Position numbers and translations under genes: made by a program. The notes below the pieces were generated by a model. That model saw nothing but the letters and a program-made list of their open reading frames with translations. It did no database searches and was not told where the DNA came from. From a virus (taxonomy: Duplodnaviria > Caudoviricetes), in IMG/VR virus record IMGVR_UViG_2740892280_000002, positions 1-64,000 of that record: DNA of 64,000 nt. The stretch is one strand, 5' to 3'. Positions 2,449 to 57,218 of the stretch are shown here, piece by piece (within the stretch, counting starts at the first letter, position 1; each line of letters starts with the position of its first letter).

Positions 2449-2480
2449 AAAAAGAGGCGGGTCTAGCCCGCCTTTTCTCT
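2447..2480. terminator. Bidirectional intrinsic terminator
   Basis: A-run, AGGCGGG/CCCGCCT hairpin, T-run, between convergent genes. Confidence 0.8.
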
Positions 2481-3517
2481 TACGCTAGAGCGCTGATCGT
2501 CCGAGGGTAGACCTCGAAGGCTCGCTCGAAAATCGAGTTTGCGAGCGCCCGAACCTCAAGCTGAGCATCGGACGGTGTCCGATCCCTAAAGAACCGACAG
2601 TAAGCGTCAAGCGTCCCGGTCCAATACCACGACGTCATAGTCGCATTCGGAAGAACGAAGCGAGCCTGCTCGGCGCAAACATCTGCCTCAATAAGCCCGT
2701 TGTAGAGCCGCTCGCAGGACTGGAGGTGTGCCTCGACAAGATTGTCTAGCGGCTTACCTCCGAACGCGGCTTCAACGCTCTCAAGCGAAGAGCCCTGCTT
2801 GACGTTCTCGGCCTTCTTTCGCCAGTAATCCGGACGGAAAAACTCCGGGCTCTCGGTAACGTACCGGCGAGAGATCTCGTTTTCGACAAACCCGTATTTA
2901 TGCTTGAACGCCTGACGCGCAATCGGGAACGGCGCGTGGCAACGGAAGGTCAAGCGTAGGAGGCGAGCGACTTCGCTCTCGGCTAGCCCGAGCTCGGTAA
3001 TCGTTTCATAGATTACCCCCTCCGGGACTGTTGAGAGCGCGGTATAGTCGACGATGTTCGCGTCATAGGTCTCGGGGATCTTGAGCTCGAAGACGCGGTA
3101 AATCGTCGGGAAGGTTTCCCGGATCTTGCTCGCGATAAGCGACCAATGCTCGACCGGCAATAGGTCGGCGTTTTCGATCCAGGCGAAGACTGAGCCGGAT
3201 TCGATGATCGTCGTCTCATATCCGCTCTTGGAGATGATCGCAGTCTCGAAGCCCGGCTTTCGATTGATCAGCCAATTGATCAAGTCGATGTTTTTGACCG
3301 ACCGCGCAAAGATCAAATTCGTATGGGCGAACGGGGTCCAGTGACGGTTACGGGCGAGGAAGCGGATAAGCTTTTCGTCCCGCGTCAAAAGGAGACCGCC
3401 GTCATCCCATTCGCTTTCCTTGGCGAACGATACGCGCGCGGCATTGACGACGGTTAGATCGCTCTGCGCCTCGGTTATCAACTCCCCCCGGATAACCGGG
3501 GAGAGCTTCGTGTTCAT
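2480..3517 (-). CDS. thyX: FAD-dependent thymidylate synthase with ~118-aa insertion
   Basis: DLTVVNAARVSF, HWTPFAH, KHKYGFVENEISRRY, EQARFVLP, WYWTGTL motifs. Confidence 0.9.
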   Translation of the reverse strand: MNTKLSPVIRGELITEAQSDLTVVNAARVSFAKESEWDDGGLLLTRDEKLIRFLARNRHWTPFAHTNLIFARSVKNIDLINWLINRKPGFETAIISKSGYETTIIESGSVFAWIENADLLPVEHWSLIASKIRETFPTIYRVFELKIPETYDANIVDYTALSTVPEGVIYETITELGLAESEVARLLRLTFRCHAPFPIARQAFKHKYGFVENEISRRYVTESPEFFRPDYWRKKAENVKQGSSLESVEAAFGGKPLDNLVEAHLQSCERLYNGLIEADVCAEQARFVLPNATMTSWYWTGTLDAYCRFFRDRTPSDAQLEVRALANSIFERAFEVYPRTISALA

Positions 3518-3537
3518 ACCTTGATTTCTCAAATTGG

Positions 3538-6153
3538 CTACGCTCCTTTCATACCTTTGGTCAAGACGGCTTCGAGTTGGTCATAGCCGCCGACGAACTC
3601 CTCGCCGTATTTTTCGTTTACCCAGACGACAACGGGGACGGTCTTGTGGTCCGGGTAGAAGTTGCGAACGATCCTCAAACGAGATTGGTCGCATTCGATG
3701 TATTGGAACCGCTCGCCGAGCTCGAAGAGCAGGTCCTTGGCCTTTTCACACCAAGGGCAATCAGCTCGCCCGTAGATCCGGAAACCTTCGCAGAAGGTAA
3801 AGTCGAAGCCTACCGAGCCGCTCTCGCGTTCGCCGGTAATCTGCTCCTCTTCGTCGAAGTCGACCGGGCAACCACCGGACCCACAATCGACATGCTCGAA
3901 GCCGATATCCTCCTGCGCGGAAATTTCGATATTGGCTACAAGCTGGTCATAGGTCTCCCGCGAGATCGGCTCCTCCGGCTGATACTCGTAAGCCGTTGTA
4001 TCGACCTGCGGCATCACGGAGCAGCACCGGACTGAGAATTGACCATCGATCAGCGTCTTGACGAAGTCGGCGAAACCAACTTCCTGCGGGTCATACTTGA
4101 GCGTGTATGAGACCTGGTTACCCGTCTCCCGGAGCGGAGTAACGCCGTCAAGATCAACGCCGGTGATCCAGTATTTTTCGATCAGGCGGAGGTACTCGTA
4201 CTGCTCCTCCGGCGTTGCCTCGGCAGCGGTTACGATCCAATCTCCGCCGTCGAGATCGCAGATCGTCGGGCGGGTCGGGAAACCGACAATAGTCGTGCCG
4301 GAGTAGCTCTTGAGCTCCCGAACCGGGTAGCCGCGCGAACGATATTCCTCGACAAGAGGATCATCGAAGCGGAACTGAACCCAGCGGAGGAATTCCCGCA
4401 TTGCCGGCAGGTGAGCACCTTCCGTCAACCCGAAGAGCTTCGAGGTCGTCCCGGCGGGCTTGAAGGTCGTATCCGTATGAGGGACCTCGACGCCAAGGAT
4501 ACGCGAGAAGATCTCAGCCTCTTCCTGAACCGCCCGCTTGAACCGGGAGAGCATCAACCAGAACGCTCTCGACGCCTTTTCGTCGACAAGCTCTTTCCAG
4601 CCGAAGCCGAACCGAGAATAGGCGTATTCATGGAGCCCGGTAATACCGACACCGATCCGGTTCGTCCGCCTGATTTCGCGCCCATAGAGAGCGTCCATCA
4701 GGTTGGTACGGATCAACGCCCGGACCGCCGTCCGGAAGGCGTCCTCGGCGTCGCTATCGTCCCGAGCGTGGAACGGGACGACGTCGGCGATCACGCAATA
4801 ACCGCCGAGGAGCAGGAGAGTGATCTCGCCGCACGGGTTGGTGATCATCGTATATTTGAGGAGCGTTACCTCGACCGCGAGATCGCGAAGTAGGGCGCGG
4901 GTCTCTTCGTCCGGCTTGAACTTCTCGGACTCCGCGTAAAAGCCATCGACGTAATCCTCGATACCGTCCCGGTTCTCGGTCAAGCGGTCCTGATTGATGA
5001 TCCCAGGCTCGCCGGTCCCGTCAAAGTAAGAGGCGCGGGCGAGGGCGATCAGAACGCGGAAAGCATGCTTGTCGAAGTGATCGACCTTCCCGGCAATCGT
5101 CAGTGCCGTAAGCGTATCGTCGACAGCCTCTTCGTCTTCGAGGATATCCCAGACGTCCGGGATCAGGGAGACGACCTTCGAGACGCGCTCGCGGAACTCT
5201 TCGTCAATCGTTACCGAGTTGTTGGAGGAGAAGAGGAAGCCGCCACGCTTGAGCTCGATAAAGCCGAAGATCGTCGCGTCTTTCCAGAACTTCGTCGCCA
5301 TGCGCGCGGCGCGGCGAGCTCCGCCAACAAGGACGCACTCGGCGAGGTAGTGATCGGCGAACATAGCCGCGCGCCAAGCTTCCATGCCGCTACCGTTAAG
5401 GCGGGCGATATTGCGGATCGCCTGCATAAGCGGACCTGGGCCGGACGCCGGACGTCCCTGCATCCCCATGATCGGCGCACCGCGCTCGCGGACCTTGGAG
5501 AAGTCAAGGAGCACGACTTCATTCATCCGGCCTTCGTAGGTCATCCGCTCGATGACTTCGATTGCCTTCGCCCAGCCTTCGCGGGAGTCCGGAACCTCGA
5601 AGACGGTAACCTCGCGGCCTTCGTAGAGGTGCTCGGCGTCCCGGCGCGTCATATAGCCGGAGATCTCGCCGCTCGCGACGTCCTTGTGACCCCAATCGAT
5701 AACGCACTCGATTGTTGGCGCAAGGGTCCAATCAACAGCCATCAAGGCGTCGTCGTAAGCGCGACCGACCCCGGAGCCGTTCAAGAGGAGGTAGAAGAGG
5801 AGGAACGAAAGAGCGGCGGTCGAGCAGTTCGTAAAGACCTCGATATTCCGATCCGGCTGGGTTTCGTCCCCGTGCTGAAGATGCCGGCCAGACATCAAGA
5901 GCGAAGCCTGCGCGAGGTGATGGCGCATACGAGCATATTCGAGGTTGAGCGTCTGCGGCTCGGAACCGTTGCGAGGGTCGAGGAGGGCGTTTCCGAGAGC
6001 TACGCGCTTCGCTACTTCCGGCCAAGTCTCGCGGCGACCGTCAATAACGCGATTGACCGTCCGGTCCGCGACAGCCTGCCCCATGCCGGGGAAGTAGCTT
6101 CGCTCGACCAGCTCGAAGCCGCCGTAGGTTTCATCGGGGTTCCAATGTTTCAT
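3538..6153 (-). CDS. nrdJ: Class II (B12-dependent) ribonucleotide reductase fused to C-terminal glutaredoxin
   Basis: TNC, TNPCGEI, RRIGVGITG-like, KPAGTTS, CGSGGCP motifs; then CPWC, TVP and GGYD glutaredoxin motifs; no NrdB gene in the window. Confidence 0.88.
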   Translation of the reverse strand: MKHWNPDETYGGFELVERSYFPGMGQAVADRTVNRVIDGRRETWPEVAKRVALGNALLDPRNGSEPQTLNLEYARMRHHLAQASLLMSGRHLQHGDETQPDRNIEVFTNCSTAALSFLLFYLLLNGSGVGRAYDDALMAVDWTLAPTIECVIDWGHKDVASGEISGYMTRRDAEHLYEGREVTVFEVPDSREGWAKAIEVIERMTYEGRMNEVVLLDFSKVRERGAPIMGMQGRPASGPGPLMQAIRNIARLNGSGMEAWRAAMFADHYLAECVLVGGARRAARMATKFWKDATIFGFIELKRGGFLFSSNNSVTIDEEFRERVSKVVSLIPDVWDILEDEEAVDDTLTALTIAGKVDHFDKHAFRVLIALARASYFDGTGEPGIINQDRLTENRDGIEDYVDGFYAESEKFKPDEETRALLRDLAVEVTLLKYTMITNPCGEITLLLLGGYCVIADVVPFHARDDSDAEDAFRTAVRALIRTNLMDALYGREIRRTNRIGVGITGLHEYAYSRFGFGWKELVDEKASRAFWLMLSRFKRAVQEEAEIFSRILGVEVPHTDTTFKPAGTTSKLFGLTEGAHLPAMREFLRWVQFRFDDPLVEEYRSRGYPVRELKSYSGTTIVGFPTRPTICDLDGGDWIVTAAEATPEEQYEYLRLIEKYWITGVDLDGVTPLRETGNQVSYTLKYDPQEVGFADFVKTLIDGQFSVRCCSVMPQVDTTAYEYQPEEPISRETYDQLVANIEISAQEDIGFEHVDCGSGGCPVDFDEEEQITGERESGSVGFDFTFCEGFRIYGRADCPWCEKAKDLLFELGERFQYIECDQSRLRIVRNFYPDHKTVPVVVWVNEKYGEEFVGGYDQLEAVLTKGMKGA

Positions 6154-6725: not shown

Positions 6726-7529
6726 TTATACCGAAGTTGAACCGACGATTAAGTCTAGCTTTTCGATCTCGTTTCCGGAAAATTTCTCTGCGCTTCCGTC
6801 CGATACGGTCGCGAGTGTGTAACCGTTAGCATCCGCCTCGGTAAGGCGACGGATCAGGATGTTCTTGTTTGCGAAGGTCGCGACGACGTAATCGCCGATA
6901 CGCGGCTGGCGCTCGGTAACAACGTAGAGCGTATCGCCCTGCTCAAACTTCGGAGCCATATCAAAGCCGACCTGGGTAACGGCATAAGCGCCCTTGTCGT
7001 CAGCCTGAGCCGGAAGCGCGGGGATAGTCCCCGAGGCTTTCCCGGCGAACCTATACGCGCCGTCTTCTTTGCGAAGGCTCTTTAGGGGAACATTAGCCGA
7101 GCGTGCGGCAATCGAGGCGCTCCCACGGTCGGCGGAGGAGCGGAGCCAGTTATTGATCTTCTCGGCCTCCTCGCCCGAAATCCGGCGCTTTCCTTGAAGA
7201 ATATTCGTAACGGCTGAAGGGGCGATCCCGAGGAGCTCGGCAAGCTCCTTGCGGAGGAGACCTTTGCGGCTCATTTCGGTCTCAAGCCAATCCGCCGAGA
7301 TCGGCGCGAAACTTCCGCTATCTCCGAAGATCTTCCCGACCGGGACGTTAAGAGCCTGTGCGAAGGCTTCCGCCCATTCCATCGTAAGCTTGCGCTCGCC
7401 GCGCTCGATACGGTTGATCGCCATCCGGCTCCGGTCGATCAGTTTCGCAAGCTCGGAAAGAGACATGTTCCGCTCGTCACGGAGTGCTTTGATATTCGGG
7501 ATTGGAAACTTGCTTTCTTCGTTAGACAT
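6726..7529 (-). CDS. CI-like repressor: two tandem XRE HTH domains plus degenerate S24 peptidase domain
   Basis: HTH1 LSELAKLIDRSRMAINRIERG; HTH2 RKELAELLGIAPSAVTNILQG; S24-like GFDMAP and ILIRRL; divergent from the replication operon. Confidence 0.82.
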   Translation of the reverse strand: MSNEESKFPIPNIKALRDERNMSLSELAKLIDRSRMAINRIERGERKLTMEWAEAFAQALNVPVGKIFGDSGSFAPISADWLETEMSRKGLLRKELAELLGIAPSAVTNILQGKRRISGEEAEKINNWLRSSADRGSASIAARSANVPLKSLRKEDGAYRFAGKASGTIPALPAQADDKGAYAVTQVGFDMAPKFEQGDTLYVVTERQPRIGDYVVATFANKNILIRRLTEADANGYTLATVSDGSAEKFSGNEIEKLDLIVGSTSV

Positions 7530-7586
7530 AGGCCCCTCCAAAAAATGTTTGACGCATTACTGTTGTGCCATGTTGGCAGTGTTCTG

Positions 7587-17176: not shown

Positions 17177-18475
17177 ATGTCAACGCTTAAGTCAGACGGG
17201 ATCGTCCTCTCCTCGGAGCAGGAGACCGCCGTCAAGAAGTTCCGCGATTGGTGGCGCGGCAAAGAAGGCAAGACCTTCTATCTCGCCGGGTACGCCGGTA
17301 CGGGTAAATCAACCGTTGCAAAGATCATGGCCGAGGGTAAAGGTCGGATCGGATACGCGGCTCCGACCCATAAGGCGGCGGCTGTTCTCCGGTCCAAAGG
17401 GATCGCAGGCGCGGGGACGATCCATTCCTTTATCTACATTCTCGAAGAGCCTCGGCGCGAGGACTTTGCGACGGATTGGGAATACGAAAAGGCGCTGATC
17501 GCCTTCCTTGACTCCCCGGAATTCGCCCTCCAACCCGAAGACTCGCTCGACGAATACGACCTGATCGTCGTCGACGAATGCTCGATGGTAGATCAGAAGA
17601 CGCTCGACGATCTCGAAAAGTTTGCGCCTCGGATCTTGGCGATGGGCGACCCCGGCCAGCTCCCGCCTGTTGGAGGACCCGGAGCCTTTACCTTCCGGGA
17701 GCCCGACGCGATCTTGACGCAGGTTCATCGTCAGGCGGAGGATAACCCGATCCTGGCACTTGCGACGCAGGTCCGGCTTACGGGCCAGTATGGCGCCTTT
17801 GACGATATCCCGATTATTTCGGCATACGATCACAACGCGGTCGACTGGTTCCTCAATAACGCTGACCAGGTTGTCGCGGGCTTCAACAAGACCCGGCGCG
17901 AGGTCAACTTCCGGGTACGGCGCTTGCGCGGTATTGACGACTTTTGGCCTGTCCCCGGAGATCGGATGATCTCTCAATCGGGAGCGATTATTCACAAGCG
18001 CGTCGACCCGTCCGAGGTTGATCTTTCTTCAACTCTTCGTGGCCTCGGCTTCGAAGACGATACGCAGGACGGCCTCTTCAACGGCGAGGAAGTCGTGATC
18101 GAGAAGGTCGTGCGAGACAAGAATAATCAGGTGATGGAACAGCCTGAATTTCGATCAATCGGCTCTCAGGATTTCAGGTTCAAATCGGCGTATGCGGACA
18201 TTCGCAAGCTCGATAAGCCCGGCGTCTATATGGCGAATTGTGTTACAGATTGGTGGAAACCTGACGTCTCCGCGAACCCTCGAAAATGGAGGGGTTTCGT
18301 CCATCTCGATTACGCTTACGCGATTACGGCGCACAAGAGCCAGGGCTCGGAATGGGAGCGCGTCGCTATCTACGACGACGGCTTCGCGGCCCGGAATATC
18401 GAGGATCGGAAAAAGTGGCTCTATACGGCTGTCACCCGAGCCTCCAAGGCGCTCGCTATCATCAGGTCAAACTGA
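17177..18475 (+). CDS. Dda/RecD-like SF1B ATP-dependent helicase
   Basis: GYAGTGKS, APTHKAA, VVDECSM, GDPGQLPP, YAITAHKSQGSEW, LYTAVTRA. Confidence 0.9.
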   Translation: MSTLKSDGIVLSSEQETAVKKFRDWWRGKEGKTFYLAGYAGTGKSTVAKIMAEGKGRIGYAAPTHKAAAVLRSKGIAGAGTIHSFIYILEEPRREDFATDWEYEKALIAFLDSPEFALQPEDSLDEYDLIVVDECSMVDQKTLDDLEKFAPRILAMGDPGQLPPVGGPGAFTFREPDAILTQVHRQAEDNPILALATQVRLTGQYGAFDDIPIISAYDHNAVDWFLNNADQVVAGFNKTRREVNFRVRRLRGIDDFWPVPGDRMISQSGAIIHKRVDPSEVDLSSTLRGLGFEDDTQDGLFNGEEVVIEKVVRDKNNQVMEQPEFRSIGSQDFRFKSAYADIRKLDKPGVYMANCVTDWWKPDVSANPRKWRGFVHLDYAYAITAHKSQGSEWERVAIYDDGFAARNIEDRKKWLYTAVTRASKALAIIRSN

Positions 18476-18505
18476 CGGAGCCTTCTAGCGGTCGTCTTAA
18501 TACGG

Positions 18506-18736
18506 AAAAAATATCCTATCCTTGCCCGCTCCAACTAAGAAGGGCTAGGATGGGATATATTTTTCCTCCTTGTATTTATCCGACCTAGCTCGGTCGCTTT
18601 CGCTTCCCGCCCTATCCGCTTCGGGTAAACCTACGCTATCGGGCGTGACCGAGCTAACGCAGAGTGCGCGCAAGAAGGCTCATCGAAAATAAAGGGTGCT
18701 AGGCAGGCGAGAAGCGTTTCTAGGCTATCGTTGTAG
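18506..18736. ncRNA. Structured non-coding element, copy 1 (putative sRNA, strand unresolved, minus favoured)
   Basis: 59-bp hairpin block identical to 47004-47062, conserved apical hairpin, 16-bp box; no credible ORF. Confidence 0.6.
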
Positions 18737-18853
18737 CCAAAAAGATAAGAACGGCTGCGGAGCACCTGTTATTTTTTGATATTGGGTATGATTTGGCATT
18801 CTCCGAGGGGTCAAAAGCGAGAGGGAGAGCGAATAGCGGCTACATCGGCCCTC

Positions 18854-18882
18854 TTGATAGGGTTTTCGAATTTGGCTACAAG
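18854..18882 (+). promoter_or_regulatory. Promoter for the dnaN operon with inverted operator in the spacer
   Basis: TTGATA-N17-TACAAG; spacer ends TTTGGC. Confidence 0.6.
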
Positions 18883-18911
18883 CGGCCAACGCAACCGGAA
18901 AGGAGCAACAA

Positions 18912-20012
18912 GTGAAATTTGAAATCGGCAAGGAAAGCCTCTCGGCGGCAATCGGAATGATCGTCTCCGTCCTCGACAAGAAAGCGACCGTCCCGCTCTT
19001 CGGCATGGTCAACATTGTGTCATACCTCCCGGAAGGGAACAGCGATCTCGGCAAGATCGAATTGTATGGGACGAATGGGATCTCGGAGATCCGGACAACG
19101 CTCGAAGCGACGGTCGGCGAAGCTGGTCGGATTGCAGTCTCCGGGGAAGTCCTCGGAGGGATCGTCAAGAAGCTTCCGAGTAAACCGGTCAAGGTTGAGA
19201 TTGACTCAAGTATCATGAACGTCAAGTGTGGTCGCTCAAAGTTCAAGGTTACGACCTTGCCCGAGCTCGCTCCGAGCTTGATCGATATGAGCGATGCCGA
19301 AGTCGTCTTCAAGGCTCCCGAGGATTCGTTTATCCCGGCTCTCAAGATGGTTGCCTTCGCAATGTCCGACGACGCGGCGAGGCATTATCTCAATGGTGTC
19401 CATATCGATTTCGAGGACGGCAAGGCGAACCTTGTTGCAACGGACGGCCATCGTCTCGCTCGCAAGGTTATCGAGGTCGACGGCGTTCCTGGGAAAGCCT
19501 ACACGCTCCCGCGCCCGGCGGTCGACTTCCTCTCGAAGTATGCCAACGGCGAGGTAACCGTCTCCCTTTCCGCGAACAAGATCACGGTCGGCTTCCTCGG
19601 CGGGGTCTATACCTCGAATCTGATCGACGGGACCTTCCCCGACTATCGGCGGGTTATTCCGGAGACAACGAAAGAGGTCGCGGAGATCGACAAGGACGAA
19701 CTCTCGCGGACGATCTCTCTCGTTACGGCTACCTCGGAAGCCAAGACGCGGGCGGTCCGGCTCTCGCTTAGCGAGGGGACGCTCGTAACGAACGCGGCAG
19801 CGGGCGGGAACGAAGGCAAGGACGAAATCGAAATCGACTATGCCGGCCCTCCGATTACTGTCGGCCTAAACGGGAAGTATCTCGCGGAGATCCTCTCCTC
19901 GGTTGAAACGCCCGGCGTCTATTTCGGCGTCAACGATCCGAGCACTCCGATCAAGATCATCCCGACAGATGACGCGGCCTTTACGGCGATCTGTATGCCG
20001 CTTCGAGTGTAG
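18912..20012 (+). CDS. dnaN: DNA polymerase III beta sliding clamp
   Basis: 366 aa; RHYLNGV, VATDGHRLA, LIDGTFPDYRRVIP, GLNGKYL, ends ICMPLRV. Confidence 0.95.
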   Translation: MKFEIGKESLSAAIGMIVSVLDKKATVPLFGMVNIVSYLPEGNSDLGKIELYGTNGISEIRTTLEATVGEAGRIAVSGEVLGGIVKKLPSKPVKVEIDSSIMNVKCGRSKFKVTTLPELAPSLIDMSDAEVVFKAPEDSFIPALKMVAFAMSDDAARHYLNGVHIDFEDGKANLVATDGHRLARKVIEVDGVPGKAYTLPRPAVDFLSKYANGEVTVSLSANKITVGFLGGVYTSNLIDGTFPDYRRVIPETTKEVAEIDKDELSRTISLVTATSEAKTRAVRLSLSEGTLVTNAAAGGNEGKDEIEIDYAGPPITVGLNGKYLAEILSSVETPGVYFGVNDPSTPIKIIPTDDAAFTAICMPLRV

Positions 20013-27085: not shown

Positions 27086-27126
27086 ACTATAAGTGCCGTA
27101 GCCAAACTGTACAGTGTAAATCGCAC
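27086..27126 (-). promoter_or_regulatory. TGTACA-class early promoter with operator in the spacer
   Basis: GTGCGATTTACAC-TGTACA-N16-TATAGT; leader ATCTCAACAACGACGGAGA. Confidence 0.65.
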
Positions 27127-27159
27127 AAGAATTCTGTTTTTGTCGACAGGCTAGGGAGC

Positions 27160-27486
27160 TTAAAGCTCCCGCGCCTCTACGATCTGGAATTCCGACCAGG
27201 CACCGCGCTTTACGAAGCCGTCCCGAGCCTTCTCGGCGAGGTCGAGGCGGGCGGAGGTTGAGAGGATGACCCAAAGCGTCGTGTCCATCATTTCGATCTC
27301 GCGCTTGATTTCGGCGAGGCGTTCCGCCGGGTATCCGAGGGAAGTCATCTCGGCAAGCTCCCGCTCGCGGATCGCCTTGTAGACTTCTCCCGGACGGGCG
27401 AGGACGGCGTGGGAGGTTGCGCGTTTGGTAGAGAACGTTGCGGTTTCGCCGTTCGGCTTGGTAACTTCAAAGGTCTTCTTGGTCAT
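27160..27486 (-). CDS. Hypothetical early protein
   Basis: RBS GAGAGAG; leader similar to other early cassettes. Confidence 0.6.
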   Translation of the reverse strand: MTKKTFEVTKPNGETATFSTKRATSHAVLARPGEVYKAIRERELAEMTSLGYPAERLAEIKREIEMMDTTLWVILSTSARLDLAEKARDGFVKRGAWSEFQIVEAREL

Positions 27487-27634
27487 GTCGTCGTCTCTCT
27501 CGTTTGATGTTGATTACGTGTAGCCAAAAACAGAAAAGCTGACCAGTGCGATTTCTGAAAAACGCACATTGATTGCGCCGTTACCGGAATCGTGTACCTA
27601 ATACCGAGGGTTGAAGTTTGTTGAGGGGCGAGAA

Positions 27635-30882: not shown

Positions 30883-30922
30883 CTTATAAGTGCGCCGCGA
30901 ACGCTGTACAGAGAAAACGCAC
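30883..30922 (-). promoter_or_regulatory. TGTACA-class early promoter
   Basis: GTGCGTTTTCTC-TGTACA-N16-TATAAG. Confidence 0.65.
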
Positions 30923-30939
30923 AAGATTTCTGTTTTTGG

Positions 30940-31161
30940 CTATGATTTGTCCAAAAACCCAGGGCGCAGTTGGGCGGTTGGTATAGGAGCCCAGGCGCGA
31001 ACGCGAGCGCCAAAATTAGCGCCGTAGTAGAAGGCGTAGGGCTCATCCCATACGAGCTTGTCCTGAAGCCTCCCGATAAAGATCCCGCCTTCGCTCGCTA
31101 GGAAGATCGCATCCTTATCCTTCGGGCATTCGTCCAACTTCCGGCTAAGGATGATACTCAT
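30940..31161 (-). CDS. Hypothetical protein
   Basis: MSIILSRK...; coupled. Confidence 0.5.
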   Translation of the reverse strand: MSIILSRKLDECPKDKDAIFLASEGGIFIGRLQDKLVWDEPYAFYYGANFGARVRAWAPIPTAQLRPGFLDKS

Positions 31162-32198: not shown

Positions 32199-32486
32199 TT
32201 AGAAATTGACTTCGATCAGCGTCTTGTTTTTCGCGTTCCGGCGAAGAACCTTTGCGCGGATCAGGCAAGTGATTGCCTTTGCGTAATCGTTCTCGCTCGG
32301 CTCGATCCCGGAGAGGGCGTCGCCGATTTTCTTGATCCGCTCGATAGGAAGAGCTGCGAAGAATTGAGCCCGGAAGGCTTGAGAGATCGCGTACTCGACA
32401 GGGGTGTAATCCCGGTTTGTAAGGTACTCGGCGAAGAGCTCGTAGGTCTTGGCTTCTTCCGGGTAGCGTTTAGAAAAGTCGGTCAT
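32199..32486 (-). CDS. Hypothetical early protein
   Basis: First gene after promoter 32513-32554. Confidence 0.6.
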   Translation of the reverse strand: MTDFSKRYPEEAKTYELFAEYLTNRDYTPVEYAISQAFRAQFFAALPIERIKKIGDALSGIEPSENDYAKAITCLIRAKVLRRNAKNKTLIEVNF

Positions 32487-32512
32487 TTCCGTCTCCGTCG
32501 TTGTTGAGATCT

Positions 32513-32554
32513 TATGTAGACGGAATCGGAAAAGCTGTACAGATGAAAATGCAC
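32513..32554 (-). promoter_or_regulatory. TGTACA-class early promoter with degenerate operator in the spacer
   Basis: GTGCATTTTCATC-TGTACA-N17-TACATA; spacer carries GTAGACGGAATCGGAAA on the + strand. Confidence 0.65.
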
Positions 32555-32668
32555 GAAAAATATGTTTTTGGCTACATTGTTTTCTGGCAGTAATCGCTCC
32601 GCCATTTTAGGTTCGGAGCGTCAAAGGGGCTTATCTCTTTGGCAAACTAGAAAGGGGGTGACGCACTG

Positions 32669-32746
32669 ATGAAAATCCGGCAAGTCCGGTTCAAGCTCAA
32701 GTTCTTCGGCTTCGCAATCGAAATCAACTTGAGATTTGAACGCTAA
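32669..32746 (+). CDS. 25-aa small ORF MKIRQVRFKLKFFGFAIEINLRFER
   Basis: Strong RBS GAAAGGGGGTGA; followed by a GC hairpin. Confidence 0.5.
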   Translation: MKIRQVRFKLKFFGFAIEINLRFER

Positions 32747-32837
32747 GGGCGAGGGGCCGGGGATAAAACCCCGGTCCCACCGGATCTAAGAAGGTGCGTC
32801 ACCCCTTGCCTAGATAATACGACCAACTCCCCAAAAT

Positions 32838-33413
32838 TCAAGCGTAGCCGACCGCGTCCGAGGGAATCGGTAGGATGATGAAACCGCAGTTCGGCTCCTT
32901 GTAGATGACCTCGGAAGAGATATCGCAGTCGCATTCCCCGTAATAGTCCTGGCTGTACGATATCGAGACCTCGACTAGGAACCGCTCGCCGATAGAGATC
33001 CCGTGCTCAAGCATAAAGTTGATGGCCGGGAAATCTATCCCATACCGACAGTCCCCACCGATAAGCCCGAGAAGACCGTCCGGACCTTCCGCAGCCTCAT
33101 AGGCCGGTAGGTTGACGGCGTAGCGCCGACCGTCGCCGATAGGTAGCATATACGGGAGTTTCCCTAAGTCCCCGTCAATCGACGGCTCACCCTGATCGGA
33201 GATTGCTTCGCACCAAAGCCAGGACGGGCAGGAGCTAGAGGAGGAGGCGACCGACTCCTGCCGATAGATCACCTTCTCGATAACCTGAGCAGGTGTATAG
33301 CGGGTAGCGCCGGGGATATACGCGGATTGCTCCAAGATCCTGCGAGCGACGTCCGAGAGGCGTCCTATGCCTGGGGCATAGATCGGGCGCTCGAAGCGCT
33401 TAACGGCTTTCAT
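32838..33413 (-). CDS. Hypothetical protein
   Basis: RBS GAGG before MKAVKRF. Confidence 0.55.
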   Translation of the reverse strand: MKAVKRFERPIYAPGIGRLSDVARRILEQSAYIPGATRYTPAQVIEKVIYRQESVASSSSSCPSWLWCEAISDQGEPSIDGDLGKLPYMLPIGDGRRYAVNLPAYEAAEGPDGLLGLIGGDCRYGIDFPAINFMLEHGISIGERFLVEVSISYSQDYYGECDCDISSEVIYKEPNCGFIILPIPSDAVGYA

Positions 33414-34029: not shown

Positions 34030-34391
34030 TTGCACAGCTCCTTAATCCGCTTGACTAAATCCATATTGGTCGCGATCCGCGACTTAGCGATCATCTGGTC
34101 GGCATGGTCCGGCGCCATCTTGTTGAGAACGTATTTCCGCTCGGTATGGGAGGCCGCTTCGAGCGCGGTAATCGCGAGGGCGAGCACTCCGAGCTTTTCC
34201 CGTTCCCGGTCAAGGAAGGTCTGCTCGACGATCCGGACAAACTCGGCGGATGCTTCGTCGAGCTCATATTCCGGGTTGATCTCGAAGCGACCGTCGCGGG
34301 TAAAGCGAACGACCCAGGTATCTGCCGAGAAAGACAGGGTCCTCATATCGAAGCTCTCTCCGGCATCGAAATATCCAATTGTCTCCTGCAC
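34026..34391 (-). CDS. Hypothetical protein
   Basis: RBS AGGAGAG next to an operator copy. Confidence 0.55.
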   Translation of the reverse strand: MQETIGYFDAGESFDMRTLSFSADTWVVRFTRDGRFEINPEYELDEASAEFVRIVEQTFLDREREKLGVLALAITALEAASHTERKYVLNKMAPDHADQMIAKSRIATNMDLVKRIKELCK

Positions 34392-34438
34392 GTTGCTCTC
34401 CTTTTCTGTTTTTGGCTACGTTCCCGGCAAGGGAAGGC

Positions 34439-40136: not shown

Positions 40137-40542
40137 GTGCAAACGAGCTCCGGAGACCGCCGAAGAGATCCGGCTCGTTATTCGCGGGCTCGCCGTATTG
40201 GAGGATCATCATTCCGTGGTCGAGCGCGACCTGGATCATGTCTTTCGTTCCGGAATTACCGGGGAAGGCGACAAGCGTCGAGTCCGGGTAGCCGAAGGCC
40301 ATTTCGCGGTTTCGGATCGGTCCCGCGCCTTTGCCGAAGCGGTCCCAGTCCGCCTTGACGGTTACGACCTGAACGCCGTTAGCGATTGCCCAATCCTTCG
40401 CAAAGGTATCGACCCCGCGCGCGCCACCGTTTACGAGCCGGGTAATCGGTCCGCTTCGGCTTGCGTGTAATTTCGAGAGGGTTTCGGAGACGAAAGGACC
40501 GTCGTCGTAGTCACGGCCTCCGGTTACAATAACATTCAGCAC
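40129..40542 (-). CDS. DUF2493 / YspA-like SLOG family protein
   Basis: VTGGRDY, GGARGVD, ADW...GKGAGPIRN, AFPG..GT..M. Confidence 0.85.
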   Translation of the reverse strand: MLNVIVTGGRDYDDGPFVSETLSKLHASRSGPITRLVNGGARGVDTFAKDWAIANGVQVVTVKADWDRFGKGAGPIRNREMAFGYPDSTLVAFPGNSGTKDMIQVALDHGMMILQYGEPANNEPDLFGGLRSSFAHV

Positions 40543-40559
40543 GAAAATTCTCCTTTTGG

Positions 40560-40733
40560 CTACACGTTGGTCAAGTCATCGATTGCAATCGTTAGGCCGA
40601 TAGAATCGTAGTCGGGTGTTTTGCTGATCTCGATTGCGCCGGAGATAACCCCGGCTCCGAGGAGCGTAAGAATTGTCAGGATCAGGATCGCTTCGACGAT
40701 TTTCCCGGCGAGGTAACGCTTAAATTCGCTCAT
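40560..40733 (-). CDS. Small membrane protein
   Basis: Hydrophobic helix. Confidence 0.5.
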   Translation of the reverse strand: MSEFKRYLAGKIVEAILILTILTLLGAGVISGAIEISKTPDYDSIGLTIAIDDLTNV

Positions 40734-41744: not shown

Positions 41745-42128
41745 TCAGTGTCCTTTCTTCGTTTCGTTTTTTCCGATTTTGGCTACTTTCGAGCGACTGA
41801 TAAGCGAACGTTTAAGGCGTTCCTTGGCAGTATCGCGCTGCTTGGCAGTAACCTTGCCGCTAGGCGTTACCGACAGGTCGTATCGGTGATAGCCCGAGAG
41901 GATTGCGCGGTAATAGGAGCGTTTGCTCGTATACCGCTTGAGAGCGAAGTGGGTAACTCGCCCGGAGACGTCCGGGTAAAGCTTGCGGATATCCTTGTAG
42001 ATCCCGACCTTGAGCGGGATTTTTGCCCGGCTCTTATCGAGGATAAAAACATCCGGGTGATCGTCTGCGAGGCGAGCTAGAAAAGCGTCTGCCTCAGACT
42101 TGATCTTGTAATAGGTCGCCTTGTTCAT
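41745..42128 (-). CDS. ProQ/FinO-domain RNA chaperone
   Basis: PLKVGIYKDI, ALKRYT...YY, G..RYDL...P.G.VT..Q...A. Confidence 0.85.
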   Translation of the reverse strand: MNKATYYKIKSEADAFLARLADDHPDVFILDKSRAKIPLKVGIYKDIRKLYPDVSGRVTHFALKRYTSKRSYYRAILSGYHRYDLSVTPSGKVTAKQRDTAKERLKRSLISRSKVAKIGKNETKKGH

Positions 42129-45465: not shown

Positions 45466-46599
45466 ATGGAAACCGCTAACGAGAGGATTGAAAACTCCGC
45501 GATCCGTCACGCGATCTTTTTGGAGCGCTACAAGACCGGGACGGTTCGGCGTATAATCGAGCTTCTCGGCGAGGTCGACGCGGATATCGTTTCTCAGATC
45601 CGAAGGCTTGAGGAGAGCTATACGCGGCGGCGGCTCGAAGCGGTTCTAAACTCAATCCGCGAGATCAATGCAAAGGCTTACCGGGAGCTCGCCGCGCGCC
45701 TTGGCGAAGAGCTCGAAGAGTTTGCAACCGGGGAGGCAGACTTCGCCCTCGGCAAGCTCTCCGAAGGGCTCCCGACCGAGCTCCGGACGGTTATCGAATT
45801 CGCTTCCCCGGCTACCGAAATCCTCTTCGTTTCCGCCGAAAATAAATTCGGAAACGCCCTAATCCAAGGGCGTGAACTTTCGTCTTGGTTTGATCAGATC
45901 GCGGACGCGGATTTCGGTCGGTTTCAGCAAGCTCTACGCCTTGGTTTCGTCGAGGGTGAGAGTATCGACAAGATGGTTCGCCGGATTACCGGGACGCGCC
46001 CGCTCAACTTCAAGGATGGAGCGCGCGAGGTTAGCCGGAGACAGGTTCGCGCCTTGGTTCGGACCGCTATCAATACGGCCTCGACTAACGCCCGCGAGGA
46101 GGTTTACAAGGCCAACGAGCCCTTGATCAAAGGCGTCCGCTGGGTATCAACCCTCGACGGTCGGACTTCGGCGATTTGCAAGGCTCGCGACGGAAAGCTC
46201 TACTCTTTCGACAAAGGGCCGAGGCCCCCGGCTCACTTCAATTGCCGGTCAACAACGACCCCGGTTCTCAAGTCCTGGCGCGAGCTAGGTTTTGACAAGG
46301 ATGAACCTGCGCGCGGCGTTCGCCCGTTTATCCGGGATACCCGAAAGCTCAAGGATATTCCGAAGAGCGCTCGCGATCAGCTTGTCGGTCGGGTTCGCGC
46401 CGATGAGACTTACGAGACCTGGCTCCGTAAGCAGCCGAAGGGATTTCAGGAGGAGGTCTTAGGTCCAACAAAAGCGCGGCTTTTCCGGCAAGGTCGACTA
46501 ACCCTCGACAAGTTTGTCGACGAAGGAACGACCCGAGAATATACGCTCCAAGAACTTCGCCGAAGGTATCCTGACGCTTGGCGTGCTTCATTTGGTTAA
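45466..46599 (+). CDS. Minor head protein / head morphogenesis (Mu F / SPP1 gp7-like)
   Basis: WVSTLDGRTSAICKARDG, PPAHFNCRST. Confidence 0.9.
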   Translation: METANERIENSAIRHAIFLERYKTGTVRRIIELLGEVDADIVSQIRRLEESYTRRRLEAVLNSIREINAKAYRELAARLGEELEEFATGEADFALGKLSEGLPTELRTVIEFASPATEILFVSAENKFGNALIQGRELSSWFDQIADADFGRFQQALRLGFVEGESIDKMVRRITGTRPLNFKDGAREVSRRQVRALVRTAINTASTNAREEVYKANEPLIKGVRWVSTLDGRTSAICKARDGKLYSFDKGPRPPAHFNCRSTTTPVLKSWRELGFDKDEPARGVRPFIRDTRKLKDIPKSARDQLVGRVRADETYETWLRKQPKGFQEEVLGPTKARLFRQGRLTLDKFVDEGTTREYTLQELRRRYPDAWRASFG

Positions 46600-46670
46600 G
46601 CTCGCCGAAGTCTGCTAGGTTTTATCTAGTTCGCTTCGTCTCGATGCGTAACTTTCTCTCCTCTCCGTCT

Positions 46671-46704
46671 AACCTCCTGTCGTTCGCGGCGGGAGGTTTT
46701 TTTT
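46671..46704 (+). terminator. Intrinsic terminator
   Basis: CCTCCTGTCG/CGGCGGGAGG hairpin plus T8. Confidence 0.7.
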
Positions 46705-46742
46705 GGTTTATACACCTGACGGATCTCGCTATTTTCACCGCT

Positions 46743-46964
46743 ATGGACGCAGAAGAATTCAAAACGCGAGCAAAAGACGCAATGGGCGGGACCGGGTGGC
46801 AGAAACGCCTCGCGACGGCGCTCGGCGTATCCCTTCAAACGACTAGCCGATGGGCTACGGGTAAGCTCCCTGTCCCTATCTACGCGATTGCGGTTATCGA
46901 GCTACTCGAAGAGCTCAAGGCGCAACGCCTTCCGGTCCCGAGCCGGTTCCGTCGCCGAGACTGA
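46743..46964 (+). CDS. Small XRE/Cro-like HTH regulator
   Basis: WQKRLATALGVSLQTTSRWATG..PVP. Confidence 0.75.
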   Translation: MDAEEFKTRAKDAMGGTGWQKRLATALGVSLQTTSRWATGKLPVPIYAIAVIELLEELKAQRLPVPSRFRRRD

Positions 46965-47003
46965 GAAACTCCGTCGTCGTTCGTCGGACCGTCAATTCAA
47001 TTA

Positions 47004-47237
47004 AAAAAATATCCTATCCTTGCCCGCTCCAACTAAGAAGGGCTAGGATGGGATATATTTTTTACTATTTAATTTCCTTCCCTCCTCACCCGCGCCTTTG
47101 TCGCTACGGGTAAACCTTCGCTAGGCGCGGGCGAAGAGTGACCGACCGAACGACTTAGGACCCAATCGAAAACGTCACGAGGATTAATTTTTAGGGGTGC
47201 TAGGCAGGCGCTATTCAGAAATTGGCTACGACGATAG
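47004..47237. ncRNA. Structured non-coding element, copy 2
   Basis: Same three conserved blocks, order and approximate spacing as 18506-18736. Confidence 0.6.
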
Positions 47238-47380
47238 CTCCAACCCCTTAAGCGCTCTCTATGGCCGTTTATTTTGTATTCCTGAAATGTGTTGGTCTGG
47301 ATTTGTCTCAAAGATTGATTTTTTGGCTACAAGTCGTTATCTGATCCCCGGCAACGACCCGAGGAAAGGAGATTTCGATT

Positions 47381-48352
47381 TTGAGCAATACCGTCATCAC
47401 AACCGGCCATTTGGAGGATTACGCGAAAAGAGTCGGGGAACTTGACCGGGCAGGTTTTGAAGGGGAGAGCGATCAGGTTTTTGAAAAGCTACTTGTCACC
47501 GGTTGGATACCTCCCGTGCCGGCCAGGAACGCGGCGGAGACAATTACCGCTTTCAACTCGCTCTATTTCCTCTCGACTGGCAAGCGAATTCCCGATCTCC
47601 GAATCCCGGTAGCAAAGGGGCTTAGCTCCCGGCGGCAGGATCTCGTTTACCGTGAATTGATCCCCGAGCTAATTTCCGCAATCGAAGAGAACGCTTCGAC
47701 CGGAACTCCGATCACGCGCATTCTCAACAATCGCGGCCTAAAAACGCCGACCCGGTCGGTTCATTCTCAGCAATGGATGCCGGGGAAACTTCAGTACCAT
47801 TTGAAGCAGGCGCTTTGCTACGACGACGACGGCGAGCTCGAAGAGTGCCTCGAAAATTACAACGTCCTCGCACAGGTTGAGGCGCGCGCCTCTGTCTCGA
47901 AGCGCGATATTCGGGAGGCGATCAAAGAGACGGTTGTCGAAATCTTCGAGGAAGTTTCGCTCGAAGGCGGCGGATGGCAGGACGCTTTGGAGCGCGTTCG
48001 CGAGTCCGGGGTCAAAAAAGTAAACGGCGAGGAGTGGTGTAGCCGGAGCCTTCTCGGCTTCGTTAACTGGCTCAAGGGCGAGGGCGTCAAGCTACCGAAA
48101 CTCTATTCCAAGGCGAAAGGTGAAACCAAGGGCGATCAAAATATCCGGAAGAACCACAAGAACGTGATTTCGGCAATGGAGCGTGCCGGTATTCGTAAGG
48201 CCGATATTCTCGCCGACCTGAGGTCGAGGCAGGTCCCCTACCTCGGCGGTCGCGGTCGAGGGAAGGGCGTAAAACTCTGGTCGGAAAGCTACTGGGGACA
48301 ATGGGAACGCGGCTGCAAAAAGCTCGGGCTCAAGATTCCAGATTTCAAATAA
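47381..48352 (+). CDS. Putative DNA-binding protein with three recombinase-type HTH-like repeats
   Basis: ILNNRGLKTP..W, VRESGVK..NGEEW, LRSRQVP..GG..W; RBS GGAAAGGAG. Confidence 0.55.
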   Translation: MSNTVITTGHLEDYAKRVGELDRAGFEGESDQVFEKLLVTGWIPPVPARNAAETITAFNSLYFLSTGKRIPDLRIPVAKGLSSRRQDLVYRELIPELISAIEENASTGTPITRILNNRGLKTPTRSVHSQQWMPGKLQYHLKQALCYDDDGELEECLENYNVLAQVEARASVSKRDIREAIKETVVEIFEEVSLEGGGWQDALERVRESGVKKVNGEEWCSRSLLGFVNWLKGEGVKLPKLYSKAKGETKGDQNIRKNHKNVISAMERAGIRKADILADLRSRQVPYLGGRGRGKGVKLWSESYWGQWERGCKKLGLKIPDFK

Positions 48353-50451: not shown

Positions 50452-50474
50452 TTGTAGCCAAAAACCGAAAAATT

Positions 50475-50499
50475 GGGCGGGGATTTCCCCGCCCTTTTT
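50475..50499 (+). terminator. Intrinsic terminator after the MCP
   Basis: GGGCGGGG/CCCCGCCC plus T5. Confidence 0.75.
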
Positions 50500-53132: not shown

Positions 53133-56100
53133 ATGGCTAACTTTCCCTTGTCTAAAGATGATTTTGACTCGCTTTTCAACGTCACTGACAGGGCGACAAG
53201 TTCTCTTGCGACTGACTTCAATCTCGGCGACGCTTCGATCATCGTAACGGACGGCGATCTCTTCCCGTCCGGTCGGCACGTCGTTACGGTCGACGATGAG
53301 CAGGTTATTGTTGCTTCGCGTTCCGGAAACGTCCTTACGGTCGAGGCTGGTGGGCGAGGGGCGTTCGGCACGCCTGTAACGGCACACTCATTCTCGACGC
53401 AGATCTCCGTAAACATGATCGCCGGCATCTGGAATACGATGACCGGAACAATCCTCGACATGCAGGAAACCCTCTGGGTCTGGCGCCTCCCGGTCCTTAG
53501 TCGGGCGATTGCGATCCCTCCCGGCGCGGTCTCGACCGGCGATAGCTACATAGTTGCTTCCGGCGGCGTTAGCGCTTGGCTAGGGCGCGACGGGGATATC
53601 GCGACTTTCAACGGCTCCGCCTGGGACTTTGTAACGCCCGAGCTCGGCTTCGCTGCTTGCGTTGCTGATGAGGGGGCGCTCGTTTTCTTCGACGGGTCCG
53701 CGTGGAAAAGCGCGGGCTCCGTAAACTCCGTTTTCGGTCGCTCGGGGGATATCACGGCCGAAAGCGGCGACTACAACGCCGGTCAAATCAGTTTCGACAA
53801 CGTAGAGAGCGGCTTGACTGCTACGGACGCGCAATCGGCTATCGACGAAGTTGCCGCGCGCGTAGCACCTCTTGAAACAGCTCCTCCTGCCCATAGCCAT
53901 ACCGTCGGTGATATTACTGACGCCGGAACGATGGCAACCCAGGATGCAAACTCCGTAGCAATTACCGGTGGGACGATCTCCGGGGCGACCGTCGATAGCC
54001 GCAACGTCGGAGCTGACGGTGCCAAGCTTGACGGCATCGCTGCCGGAGCGACCGCGAACGCTACTGACGCATTTCTCCTTGATCGCGGTAATCATACCGG
54101 CACGCAGCCGGTTAGCACTATCGACGGGCTCTCGTCAGCGCTCGGCGATGCAAGCTCTCACGCGGCGAGGACGGATAACCCTCACGCAGTTACGAAAGCG
54201 CAAGTCGGCCTTGGGAACGTATCAAACGATGCGCAGATCCCGCTCGCGCAAAAAGGAGCTCCGAACGGCGTCGCGGAGCTTGATGCAACGGGTAAGGTCC
54301 CGGCGGCTCAGCTCCCCTCCTACGTTGATGATGTCTTGGAGGTTCCGGACTATACGGCGCTCCCGATTACCGGAGAGGCTGGCAAGCTCTATGTCACGAT
54401 CAACACGAATGTAACCTACCGCTGGTCGGGGACGACCTATGTCGAGATCTCCGCGAGCGTAGCACTCGGCGAGACGGCGGACTCCGCCTATCGAGGGGAT
54501 CGCGGCAAGATCGCATATGATCATAGCCAACAGGTCGGCGGAAACCCTCACGGGGTTACAAAGTCCGAAGTCGGCCTAGGAAACGTCGACAATACTTCGG
54601 ACGCAAGCAAGCCGGTTTCAACCGCGCAACAAACGGCGCTCGATACAAAGGTCGACAAGGTCGCCGGGTATGGACTTTCCGAGGAGGACTTTACCTCGAC
54701 GCTTCTCGCAAAGGTCAATGGTATCGCGGCAGGAGCGACGGCAAACTCCTCCGATAGCGTTCTCCTTGATCGCGCGAACCATACCGGGGAGCAGGCGATT
54801 TCGACCGTTACGGGCCTGCAAGGGGCTATCGACGCAAAGGTCGACGTTGTCCCTGGCAAGCAGCTTTCTACCGAGGATTATACGACCCTCGAAAAAACGA
54901 AGCTGGCCGGCATCGAGGATGGCGCTACCGCCAACTCGACAGACGCTTTCCTGCTCGATAGGTCAAACCATACCGGTACGCAGCCGATCTCTTCGATTGA
55001 GGGATTACAGGCGGAGCTTGACGGTGGAGGAGCTCACGCTTTCCGGACGGATAACCCGCACGGGGTAACAAAGGCCCAGGTCGGCCTTGGCAACGTTACC
55101 AATCAGGCGCAGATCCCCCTTTCCGAAAAAGGGTCTCCGAACGGCGTCGCCGAGCTAGACGCAACCGGCAAAGTCCCGGCGGCTCAGCTTCCGTCATATG
55201 TCGATGAGGTCGTCGAGTTTGCGACAGCAGGGGACTTCCCGGCGACCGGGATCGGCGGCGTGATCTATATCGCGACCGATACAAACAAGACCTATCGGTG
55301 GACAGGCACGCTTTACGTCGCGATTTCCAGCGACGTCGCGCTCGGCGAAACGGCCTCGACCGCCTATCGCGGCGACCGTGGCAAGATTGCTTACGATCAC
55401 AGTCAAGCGGTAGGCAATCCGCACGGAACGACAAAGGCGGATATTGGCCTCGGGAACGTCGACAACGTTTCAAGCGCATCTCTTAGGGATCGCTCGACGC
55501 ATACGGGCACTCAAACCCTAGCGACGATCTCTAACGCGGGAACAGCCGCCGGGCTAAACGCCGGGTCTTCAATCGGAAACGTTCTGCTTATCGAAAACAA
55601 CGCCGGGACGCCGTCCCTCCCGGCTATCGACGGATCACGACTCCTCAACATCGGCGGCGGAGGGGGAGGTGGTGGAGGTAGCTCTATGGAATTCCGCGTC
55701 AGGTATATCTCTGACGGGTTCTTTATCGTCCCGGCTGGTATCTACATGATTTGGGTTACCGCCATCGGCGGCGGAGGTGGCGGAGCATCCGGAACAGGTG
55801 CAGTTTCTACAAACGTATCCGGCGGCGGTGTCCGGTATGGTGGCAATGCAGGAAAAAACGGTGCTGCTTGTTTGCTAATGCCTGTTCGGGTTACCCCAGG
55901 CGATAACTTCCCGATAACAATCGGACGCGGTGGGGCTGGTGGTGTTCAACCAGCCGTGGCTAACACGAACGTAGCCGGTGTTGCTGGTGGAACTACAATC
56001 GCCGGTAATATCATCCTCCCAGGTGGAGAAGCTGGTGAAAATGCGTCAACTTCAATATTTACAGACGAATTGCTTTTGTCCGTTATTACCGATTTCGATA

Positions 56101-57124: not shown

Positions 57125-57218
57125 AGCGCATATTTCCGTATTTTTTTCGGTTTGCTTCGAATTTGGCTCCTACTTAGAAAGCTTTCAGGGGGTGTCAATA
57201 CAACTAGACGGTGGGGTA

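Follow-up and report, generated by a model that had tools for sequence, protein, structure and literature searches.

The 64,000-nucleotide stretch of phage DNA analysed here (the window) contains two copies of a structured non-coding element, one between the genes for a Dda-like helicase and the DnaN clamp (copy A) and one ahead of the head genes (copy B). A related prophage has the same pair, and the elements are therefore real, conserved and regulatory, and of an undescribed kind. We favour, at a probability of roughly one in three (0.35), a reading in which the first hairpin of each element, H1, would be a bidirectional terminator and, together with a linker and a second hairpin, H2, would form a FinP-like RNA module that is served by a FinO/ProQ-domain protein of the phage and gates the dnaN and head operons. 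In this reading, action of the hairpins at the RNA level, a minus-strand transcript, its binding by the FinO/ProQ protein and the regulatory outcome are inferences.

The window covers the first 64 kb of its source record, which is 79.5 kb long, is classified as a provirus and sits within a 2-Mb contig of assembly GCA_001403915.1. Its gene content is that of a temperate siphophage. Its genes include those for a DUF6538 protein, a possible integrase, and for a CI-like HTH/S24 repressor with tandem HTH domains (6726-7541); the replication block encodes a primase/helicase, the Dda-like helicase (17177-18475) and DnaN (18912-20012); and further genes encode a terminase, a portal, a MuF-like protein, a scaffold and an SPP1-type major capsid protein. 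Beside the immunity region, the minus strand at 2480-6153 encodes a thymidylate synthase of the ThyX type and, in 871 aa, a class II ribonucleotide reductase whose C-terminal domain is a glutaredoxin. A 1130-aa gene (53133-56525) contains internal direct repeats of ~93-300 nt at 54021-55199 (71-72% identity), probably the repeated domains of a tail fibre. Copy A occupies a 436-bp spacer (18476-18911) from the helicase gene to dnaN, and copy B a 416-bp spacer (46965-47380) from a small HTH gene to a 323-aa gene ahead of the scaffold and capsid genes. Both spacers are free of ORFs, and the operons around them are otherwise tightly packed.

A single relative was found, a prophage in an uncultured Roseibium MAG (assembly GCA_947500145.1); DnaN and the scaffold protein, each at 73% identity, each point to one contig of this assembly. 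Because the only close relative of several of the phage proteins is this prophage in an 'uncultured Roseibium sp.' assembly, we infer a Roseibium-like host genus, a marine bacterium. The relative carries its spacer pair at the same two gene junctions, the helicase-dnaN spacer R_A (L007:9512-10000) and the HTH-to-head spacer R_B (L008:8380-8800), and all comparative statements here rest on two phages and four sequences. The HTH gene upstream of copy B, annotated at 46578-46964, likely starts at Met56 (~46743) and encodes 72 aa, since the relative's ortholog has 72 aa and the alignment begins there, at 83% identity. The first gene after copy B (47381-48352; L008:8801-9904) is only 25% identical between the phages, against 73-83% for its neighbours; its 323-aa product shows a weak DNA-binding signature of the recombinase type (PF07508, E 0.002) and has Atlas look-alikes at 0.82-0.87, and no other homologs were found among 5.8 billion proteins.

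The initial annotation had described two homologous structured non-coding elements, and all five of the features that it listed are present where it placed them. H1, its 59-bp block, is 100% identical at 18506-18564 (copy A) and 47004-47062 (copy B). Without an assigned strand, it consists of an A6 run, a 16-17-bp stem, a 14-nt loop (18528-18541 in copy A) and TATTTTT. H1 begins 30 nt past the stop codon of the helicase gene in copy A and 39 nt past that of the HTH gene in copy B, and the corresponding distance is 26-50 nt in all four spacers of the two phages. Fold energies on the plus and minus strands are -33.3 and -32.1 kcal/mol for copy A and -28.6 and -27.5 kcal/mol for copy B. The window hairpins are flanked by A6-7 and T5-7, such that the stem is followed by TATTTTT on the plus strand and directly by T6/T7 on the minus strand. 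A stable GC-containing hairpin followed by a U-tract, the hallmark of an intrinsic terminator, is thus found in both directions. As judged from the letters, H1 in the window looks like a bidirectional intrinsic (factor-independent) terminator, which upholds the shared terminator of the initial annotation on the minus strand as well. A simple terminator scan, run with a loop limit of 8 nt, overlooks H1 only because of that limit. The phage's ordinary terminators are short GC-rich hairpins (e.g., 50470-50499), and this difference in type marks H1 as a special kind. Like H1, known bidirectional Rho-independent terminators combine an A-run, a GC-containing stem and a T-run, are equally stable on both strands and lie right after a stop codon. 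In contrast to them, H1 faces no convergent gene, its stem is unusually long (17-40 bp), and its 8-14-nt loop has a sequence conserved between the copies. A copy of the H1 loop with two mismatches at 57166 does not form a hairpin.

H1 is followed by a CU-rich linker (18565-18585 and 47063-47087). The CCTCCT that had been annotated in it is present in both window copies (18565-18570 and 47082-47087) but is not conserved: the linker is pyrimidine-rich in all four spacers, and the relative has the CU-rich tract without the exact hexamer. H2 comes next. In copy A (18586-18656) it is two-tiered: a 10-bp outer stem is topped by a middle stem of 5 bp, and the tip lies at 18618-18639. In copy B (47079-47141) an 8-bp GC stem carries an extension that, owing to two G-U pairs, is better paired on the minus strand, and the tip lies at 47102-47123. 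The tip, CGCT-W-CGGGTAAACCT-W-CGCTA, is identical at 20 of 22 positions, while the outer stems of the two copies are unrelated in sequence. The T/A to A/T swap of the two W bases, proposed earlier as a possible compensatory pair, is real, but both bases are unpaired in the minimum-energy folds of the window copies; in the relative's copy A a T-A pair closes the CCGG/CCGG tip of H2. A hairpin with unrelated stem sequences occupies the H2 position in all four spacers, with z-scores of -2.4, -3.0, -3.5 and -1.6 on the plus strand and -2.6, -4.8, -2.9 and -1.9 on the minus strand. The window H2 hairpins are more stable on the minus strand (-38.9 versus -32.3 and -37.4 versus -28.8 kcal/mol). A search for targets complementary to the H2 tip gave seven matches in total against 0.94 expected, five of them one-mismatch 11-mers; none extended into longer pairing, and they were taken as chance or codon bias. 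The CGCTWC repeats in the window copies are 17 bp apart.

The 16-bp box GGGTGCTAGGCAGGCG (18694-18709 in copy A, 47195-47210 in copy B) is found at just these two places in the window, and its distance from the start of the H1 block is 188 bp in copy A and 191 bp in copy B; the distance from the H2 tip to the box differs by 16 nt between the copies. In both, a palindrome GGCTA-N6-TAGCC begins 14 bp past the end of the box (18723-18738 and 47224-47239). As annotated, it contains the full GTAGCCAAAA motif in opposite orientations: the right half carries it, plus-oriented, in copy A, and the left half carries it, minus-oriented, in copy B. An antibox, CGGCTGCGGAGCACC, which pairs with the box and is followed by TTATTTTTT, lies at 18752-18777. 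The A-run, box, palindrome and antibox together make up P3, which is a bidirectional terminator-like hairpin in the A copies only. Both A copies have a canonical terminator on either strand (z -4.4 and -3.3 on the minus strand, where the relative's A copy has a T9), and in the B copies the structure of P3 is not significant (z +0.5 and -0.2). In R_B, G-U pairs make P3 more stable on the plus strand (-25.3 versus -14.7 kcal/mol). The sole P3 feature common to all four spacers is the plus-strand T-run that follows it, GTTTATTTTG at 47267-47276 in copy B. A box/antibox helix as a universal RNA structure was only partly supported, three box changes in R_A being uncompensated in the antibox. The A-copy P3 unit (18685-18779; L007:9745-9846), an ~85-nt hairpin with flanking A and T runs, may be a separate small minus-strand RNA, and a minus-strand ATGCCA/CTGCCA-N17-AAAAAT kept in both A copies is aimed at the foot of P3. 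Farther on in copy B, an inverted motif, TTTTGGCTACAAG (47321-47333, minus strand), lies 48 nt upstream of the 323-aa gene start.

A chance origin of the twin elements is excluded. Copies A and B share no reading frame on either strand; a protein-coding reading was rejected on this ground, and an 80-aa minus-strand ORF at 47069-47311 has no counterpart in copy A. No further copies were found in the whole 79.5-kb provirus record. The comparison with Rfam that the initial annotation had suggested, made with the Rfam 15 covariance models over the whole window, gave no match at gathering score, and at E<5 only chance miRNA and unrelated matches far under threshold, which rules out the known RNA families. 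Searches for further relatives were similarly empty. Blastn against isolated phages returned no match; exact-pattern scans with the H1 core, the box and an A-copy 21-mer across viral, genome and metagenome collections returned nothing or chance matches (L003 and L004, in coding or unrelated context); scans of viral contigs guided by dnaN and the 323-aa gene returned no relatives; and a 17-mer motif scan returned 17 single chance matches with no enrichment of the motif.

Comparison of the four spacers revealed two modes of evolution. R_A and R_B have, in order, H1, a CU-rich linker, a two-tier GC-rich H2, an A/T run, the box (core TAGGCAGGCG, degenerate in R_B), the palindrome GGCTA-N6-TAGCC 13 nt from the box, a box-complementary segment and TTATTTT. 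The right half of the spacers is orthologous by position, A with R_A and B with R_B. Between copy A and R_A, ~55 of 60 bases agree in the tract that runs from AAGAACG through CTGCGGAGCACCTGTTATTTTT to ATTTGGCA, and TTTGGCTACAAGCGGC is common to both as well. Copy B and R_B have other islands in common. The left half (H1, H2 and box) instead follows the genome, the two copies in a phage evolving in concert. Between the phages the H1 sequences are unrelated, the 5' arm being purine-rich in the relative and pyrimidine-rich in the window, but they match within each phage, so both loci switched H1 together in at least one lineage. The H1 hairpins of R_A and R_B resemble each other. Their loop, ACTACGTA, is kept at 8 of 8 positions. 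Two double-sided substitutions and one paired indel separate the inner stems, and the outer arms of 17-20 bp differ in sequence and are fully paired in both; the 29 and 38 pairs are almost all Watson-Crick. In the relative the U-tract lies largely within the stem, with no clean U-tract past it, and the terminator match is weaker. The pattern of change in H1 indicates that selection maintains its pairing and its loop. The loop and pairing being kept while both loci changed together points to a shared sequence-specific partner or to pairing between transcripts of the two loci rather than to two independent terminators; a single trans factor, or RNA-RNA pairing, acting on both loci would be expected to make their left halves change in concert.

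A plainer explanation, nearly as likely as the FinP-like reading though tentative in itself, is that the spacers are operon-boundary cassettes. H1 would terminate the upstream plus-strand operon, H2 and P3 would insulate it or be processed by RNase III, the right part would hold the repressor-controlled promoter of the next operon, and the identity of A and B would come from duplication and gene conversion, with no shared trans factor. The position of H1 directly behind stop codons, the plus-strand T-run after P3 in four of four spacers and the positional conservation of the right halves all agree with it. So does a sigma-70-like TTGATA-N17-TACAAG on the plus strand (18854-18882), read from the sequence and under the 9/12 threshold of the promoter scan, which lies 24-30 nt upstream of the dnaN SD and GTG; an inverted GTAGCCAAA motif overlies its spacer and -10, and the relative has TTGACG-N17-TACAAG in the same place, likewise just before dnaN with the overlapping inverted motif. 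These sequences plausibly constitute a repressor-controlled dnaN promoter, and such a promoter would leave the ~350 bp between H1 and itself out of the dnaN mRNA. The duplexes of 17-40 bp also match RNase III substrates in length. T7-type RNase III hairpins offer a possible analogy, as long imperfect intergenic duplexes of related sequence at several junctions of polycistronic operons, but here there are only two sites, with A/T-run flanks and with the box and operator palindrome alongside. What the boundary cassettes leave unexplained is that the limits of the identical block coincide exactly with the A-run/hairpin/T-run unit, that the relative's loop is kept while its stems co-vary, that one lineage acquired the same new H1 at both of its loci, and that the H2 tip and box stand out as conserved islands; the phage's ordinary terminators, moreover, are of the other, short GC-rich kind.

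The elements might instead act as DNA. The H1 centre, the CGCT repeats of the H2 tip and the box could bind a phage DNA-binding protein, with the hairpins as incidental palindromes, and either the 72-aa HTH protein upstream of copy B or the fast-evolving 323-aa protein downstream could be the binder. The HTH gene adjoins copy B in both phages, the downstream gene has its weak PF07508 match and recombinase-HTH look-alikes, its 25% identity parallels the divergence of the left half, and the spacing of the CGCTWC repeats in the window copies (17 bp) would suit such sites. Nevertheless, the HTH protein is 83% identical across phages whose H1 sequences are unrelated, compensatory stem substitutions select for pairing and not for a fixed double-stranded sequence, and the sites are 170-350 bp from the nearest promoter-like sequence. 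We regard this alternative as improbable, the least probable of those considered.

The FinP-like reading draws on a candidate partner encoded by the phage itself. FinO/ProQ-domain RNA chaperones are known chiefly from plasmids and chromosomes. The window has a gene for a 127-aa FinO/ProQ-domain protein on the minus strand (41745-42128; PF04352, E 8e-18; E. coli ProQ 5NB9, E 1.7e-4), and proteins of this domain, 124-127 aa long, are present in both phages at 52% identity, against 73-83% for neighbouring proteins. The presence of both the spacer pair and this gene in the second phage accords with the RNA reading of the initial annotation, and we consider the protein a candidate trans partner of the twin elements. 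FinO-domain proteins bind a helix with a 3' tail behind it, and this is typically an intrinsic terminator; the 5' flank of many ProQ ligands is A-rich; RNA pairing in the FinO family is seeded at kissing loops; and family members on mobile elements and plasmids serve dedicated antisense RNAs (PMC9977716). By analogy, H1 fits the description of a FinO/ProQ ligand on either strand, and an antisense or kissing-loop system would be expected to retain its loop as its stems co-vary.

In the mechanism that we propose for this reading, the two spacers would be paralogous regulatory cassettes where one plus-strand operon ends and the next starts (helicase to dnaN, and HTH gene to head genes). H1 would stop transcription in both directions independently of factors. 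H2, the purine/pyrimidine-rich linker and H1 with its U-tail would constitute a two-stem-loop RNA domain of the FinP type, which would be carried at the 3' end of the upstream plus-strand transcripts and most likely also in a non-coding RNA, ~200 nt long, that is transcribed convergently from the minus strand and has its end at H1. The phage FinO/ProQ protein would bind the H1 hairpin and 3' tail and aid loop pairing between the sense and antisense copies. Through such pairing, the amount of transcription, or of stable RNA, that passes from the operon upstream to the dnaN and head operons would be adjusted.

The FinP/FinO system of F-like plasmids and the Inc RNA/FopA system of IncI plasmids show how far the likeness goes. 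There, as here, a mobile element encodes its own FinO-domain protein. Their RNAs have two stem-loops joined by a short linker, of which the second is a terminator with a U-tail, and they have element-specific loops and co-varying stems (PMC9977716). On the minus strand of the window the same architecture can be read as H2, linker, H1 and U6-7, the transcript being hypothetical, and the minus-oriented GTAGCCAAAA motifs in the spacers were counted in favour of the FinP-like reading. The differences are that the candidate RNA here would be ~200 nt long rather than ~70-80 nt, that it has two loci and that it belongs to a phage and not a plasmid. Unlike the traJ target of FinP, the opposite strand across H1-H2 carries no ribosome-binding site or start codon, and complementarity to a translation-initiation region was accordingly not found there; this strand carries CCTCCT, which is anti-SD-like, and the dnaN and head-gene starts are 250-350 nt off.

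The strand signals are divided. The initial annotation had placed a minus-strand promoter near the box and read the elements as operator-controlled minus-strand sRNAs. No sigma-70-like promoter was found in scans of the minus strand beside the box, where only minus-oriented GTAGCCAAAA motifs are present, so the antisense promoter of a FinP-type system was missing at this position, and in the A copies the region is itself the minus-strand terminator of P3. The sRNA reading is partly supported: its anatomy suits the B copies best, no promoter was found for it beside the box, and the motif orientation is not equivalent in A and B. Because P3 lies upstream of H2 on the minus strand of the A copies, it is mainly in the B copies that a minus-strand RNA could plausibly extend to H1. 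The only sigma-70-like matches in the scans were a weak TTGCCC-N18-TAGGAT inside H1 on the plus strand and the ATGCCA/CTGCCA-N17-AAAAAT of the A copies on the minus strand; purine skew gave no strand signal, and a sigma-54 reading of TTTGGCA was rejected, the window copy lacking the GC of GG-N10-GC. The plus strand is favoured by the P3 energies and by one U-G pair within H1, the minus strand by the H2 energies. With H1 equally stable both ways, H2 leaning minus and P3 leaning plus, the sequence alone does not decide which strand is transcribed.

The plus-leaning cues would suit a leader or small RNA of ~215 nt on the plus strand, with a promoter in or after H1, a CU-rich anti-SD start, H2 and an end at P3/TTATTTT, comparable to the antiterminated lambda PR'-6S RNA/tR' unit, to a put-like element or to an anti-SD sRNA. 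For such a leader speak the TTGCCC-N18-TAGGAT, which is the sole promoter-like match on the plus strand and occurs in both window copies, the universal plus-strand T-run after P3, the R_B P3 that pairs through G-U only on the plus strand (-25.3 versus -14.7 kcal/mol), and the plus-oriented motif within P3 of the A copies. The promoter match is weak, however (8/12, with a spacer of 18 nt), and nothing equivalent occurs in the H1 of the relative; P3 of the B copies shows no significant structure (z +0.5, -0.2); CCTCCT is not conserved; and no Q-like or N-like antiterminator was identified among the phage proteins scanned. Lambda nutL/nutR and HK022 putL/putR, like the present elements, are two related stem-loop copies per genome at the heads of two operons. 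Unlike them, the copies here have the same orientation, follow directly after a terminator rather than a promoter (apart from the weak promoter-like match inside H1, seen in the window only), and have no sequence or Rfam similarity to nut or put. We consider a plus-strand leader unlikely.

The palindrome links both spacers to a wider set of sites. GTAGCCAAAA-N2-GRAAA occurs ~30 times in the window (1599-50470) and ~20 times in the relative's two loci, mostly 18-30 nt before start codons and co-oriented with the gene; the relative has 11 and 9 exact GTAGCCAAA sites in L007 and L008, of 21 kb each. By analogy, these sites resemble a stoperator-like network, with the CI-like protein (6726-7541) as the putative repressor. 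In the manner of the stoperators of cluster A mycobacteriophages (L5 gp71; PMC9283540), the ~30 asymmetric sites of this phage extend across the genome, mostly at gene junctions and in the orientation of transcription; the candidate repressor here has tandem HTH domains. The comparison covers the motif and not the twin hairpins. Few of the 31 window sites of GTAGCCAA depart from the orientation of the genes beside them, and those that do are concentrated in the twin spacers (18878-, 47228- and 47329-). In both phages, the full GTAGCCAAAA motif of the palindrome is plus-oriented in copy A and minus-oriented in copy B. Given this opposite orientation, A and B are unlikely to be equivalent 'twin sRNA genes', and any model must account for the conserved asymmetry. 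A single-subunit RNA polymerase as the reader of the motif was rejected, because the 871-aa ORF encodes the class II ribonucleotide reductase-glutaredoxin fusion. On minus-strand operons the motif is extended in a second repeat family, TAGCCAAAAACAGAAATCTTGTGCGTTTTC, often followed by CTGTACAG (27117-27146, 30913-30942, 32545-32574, 34389-34418 and 40533-40562), and several of its copies lie in the ORF-poor gaps 27274-27611 and 32268-32838.

A more specific circuit of the FinOP type can also be drawn, which we think doubtful. A single minus-strand RNA from copy B would act in cis at the packaging-to-head junction and in trans at copy A, chaperoned by the FinO/ProQ protein, so that the clamp and replication genes and the head genes are co-timed. 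Copy B is the proposed source because its motif is minus-oriented and its P3 has no minus-strand terminator. In trans, the RNA would act through the identical H1, the H2 tip and the box on plus-strand read-through RNA at copy A, and P3 would block local antisense transcription at copy A. One RNA kept complementary to two loci would explain the concerted evolution in both phages.

Should the elements prove to be only terminators and promoters, they would represent ordinary phage operon architecture. The left half that co-evolves within each genome and the right half that is conserved by position amount to a clean natural experiment, which singles out the H1 loop, the H2 tip and the box. If the FinP-like reading is true, FinOP-type riboregulation would extend to the control of a phage life cycle, in a marine alphaproteobacterium.
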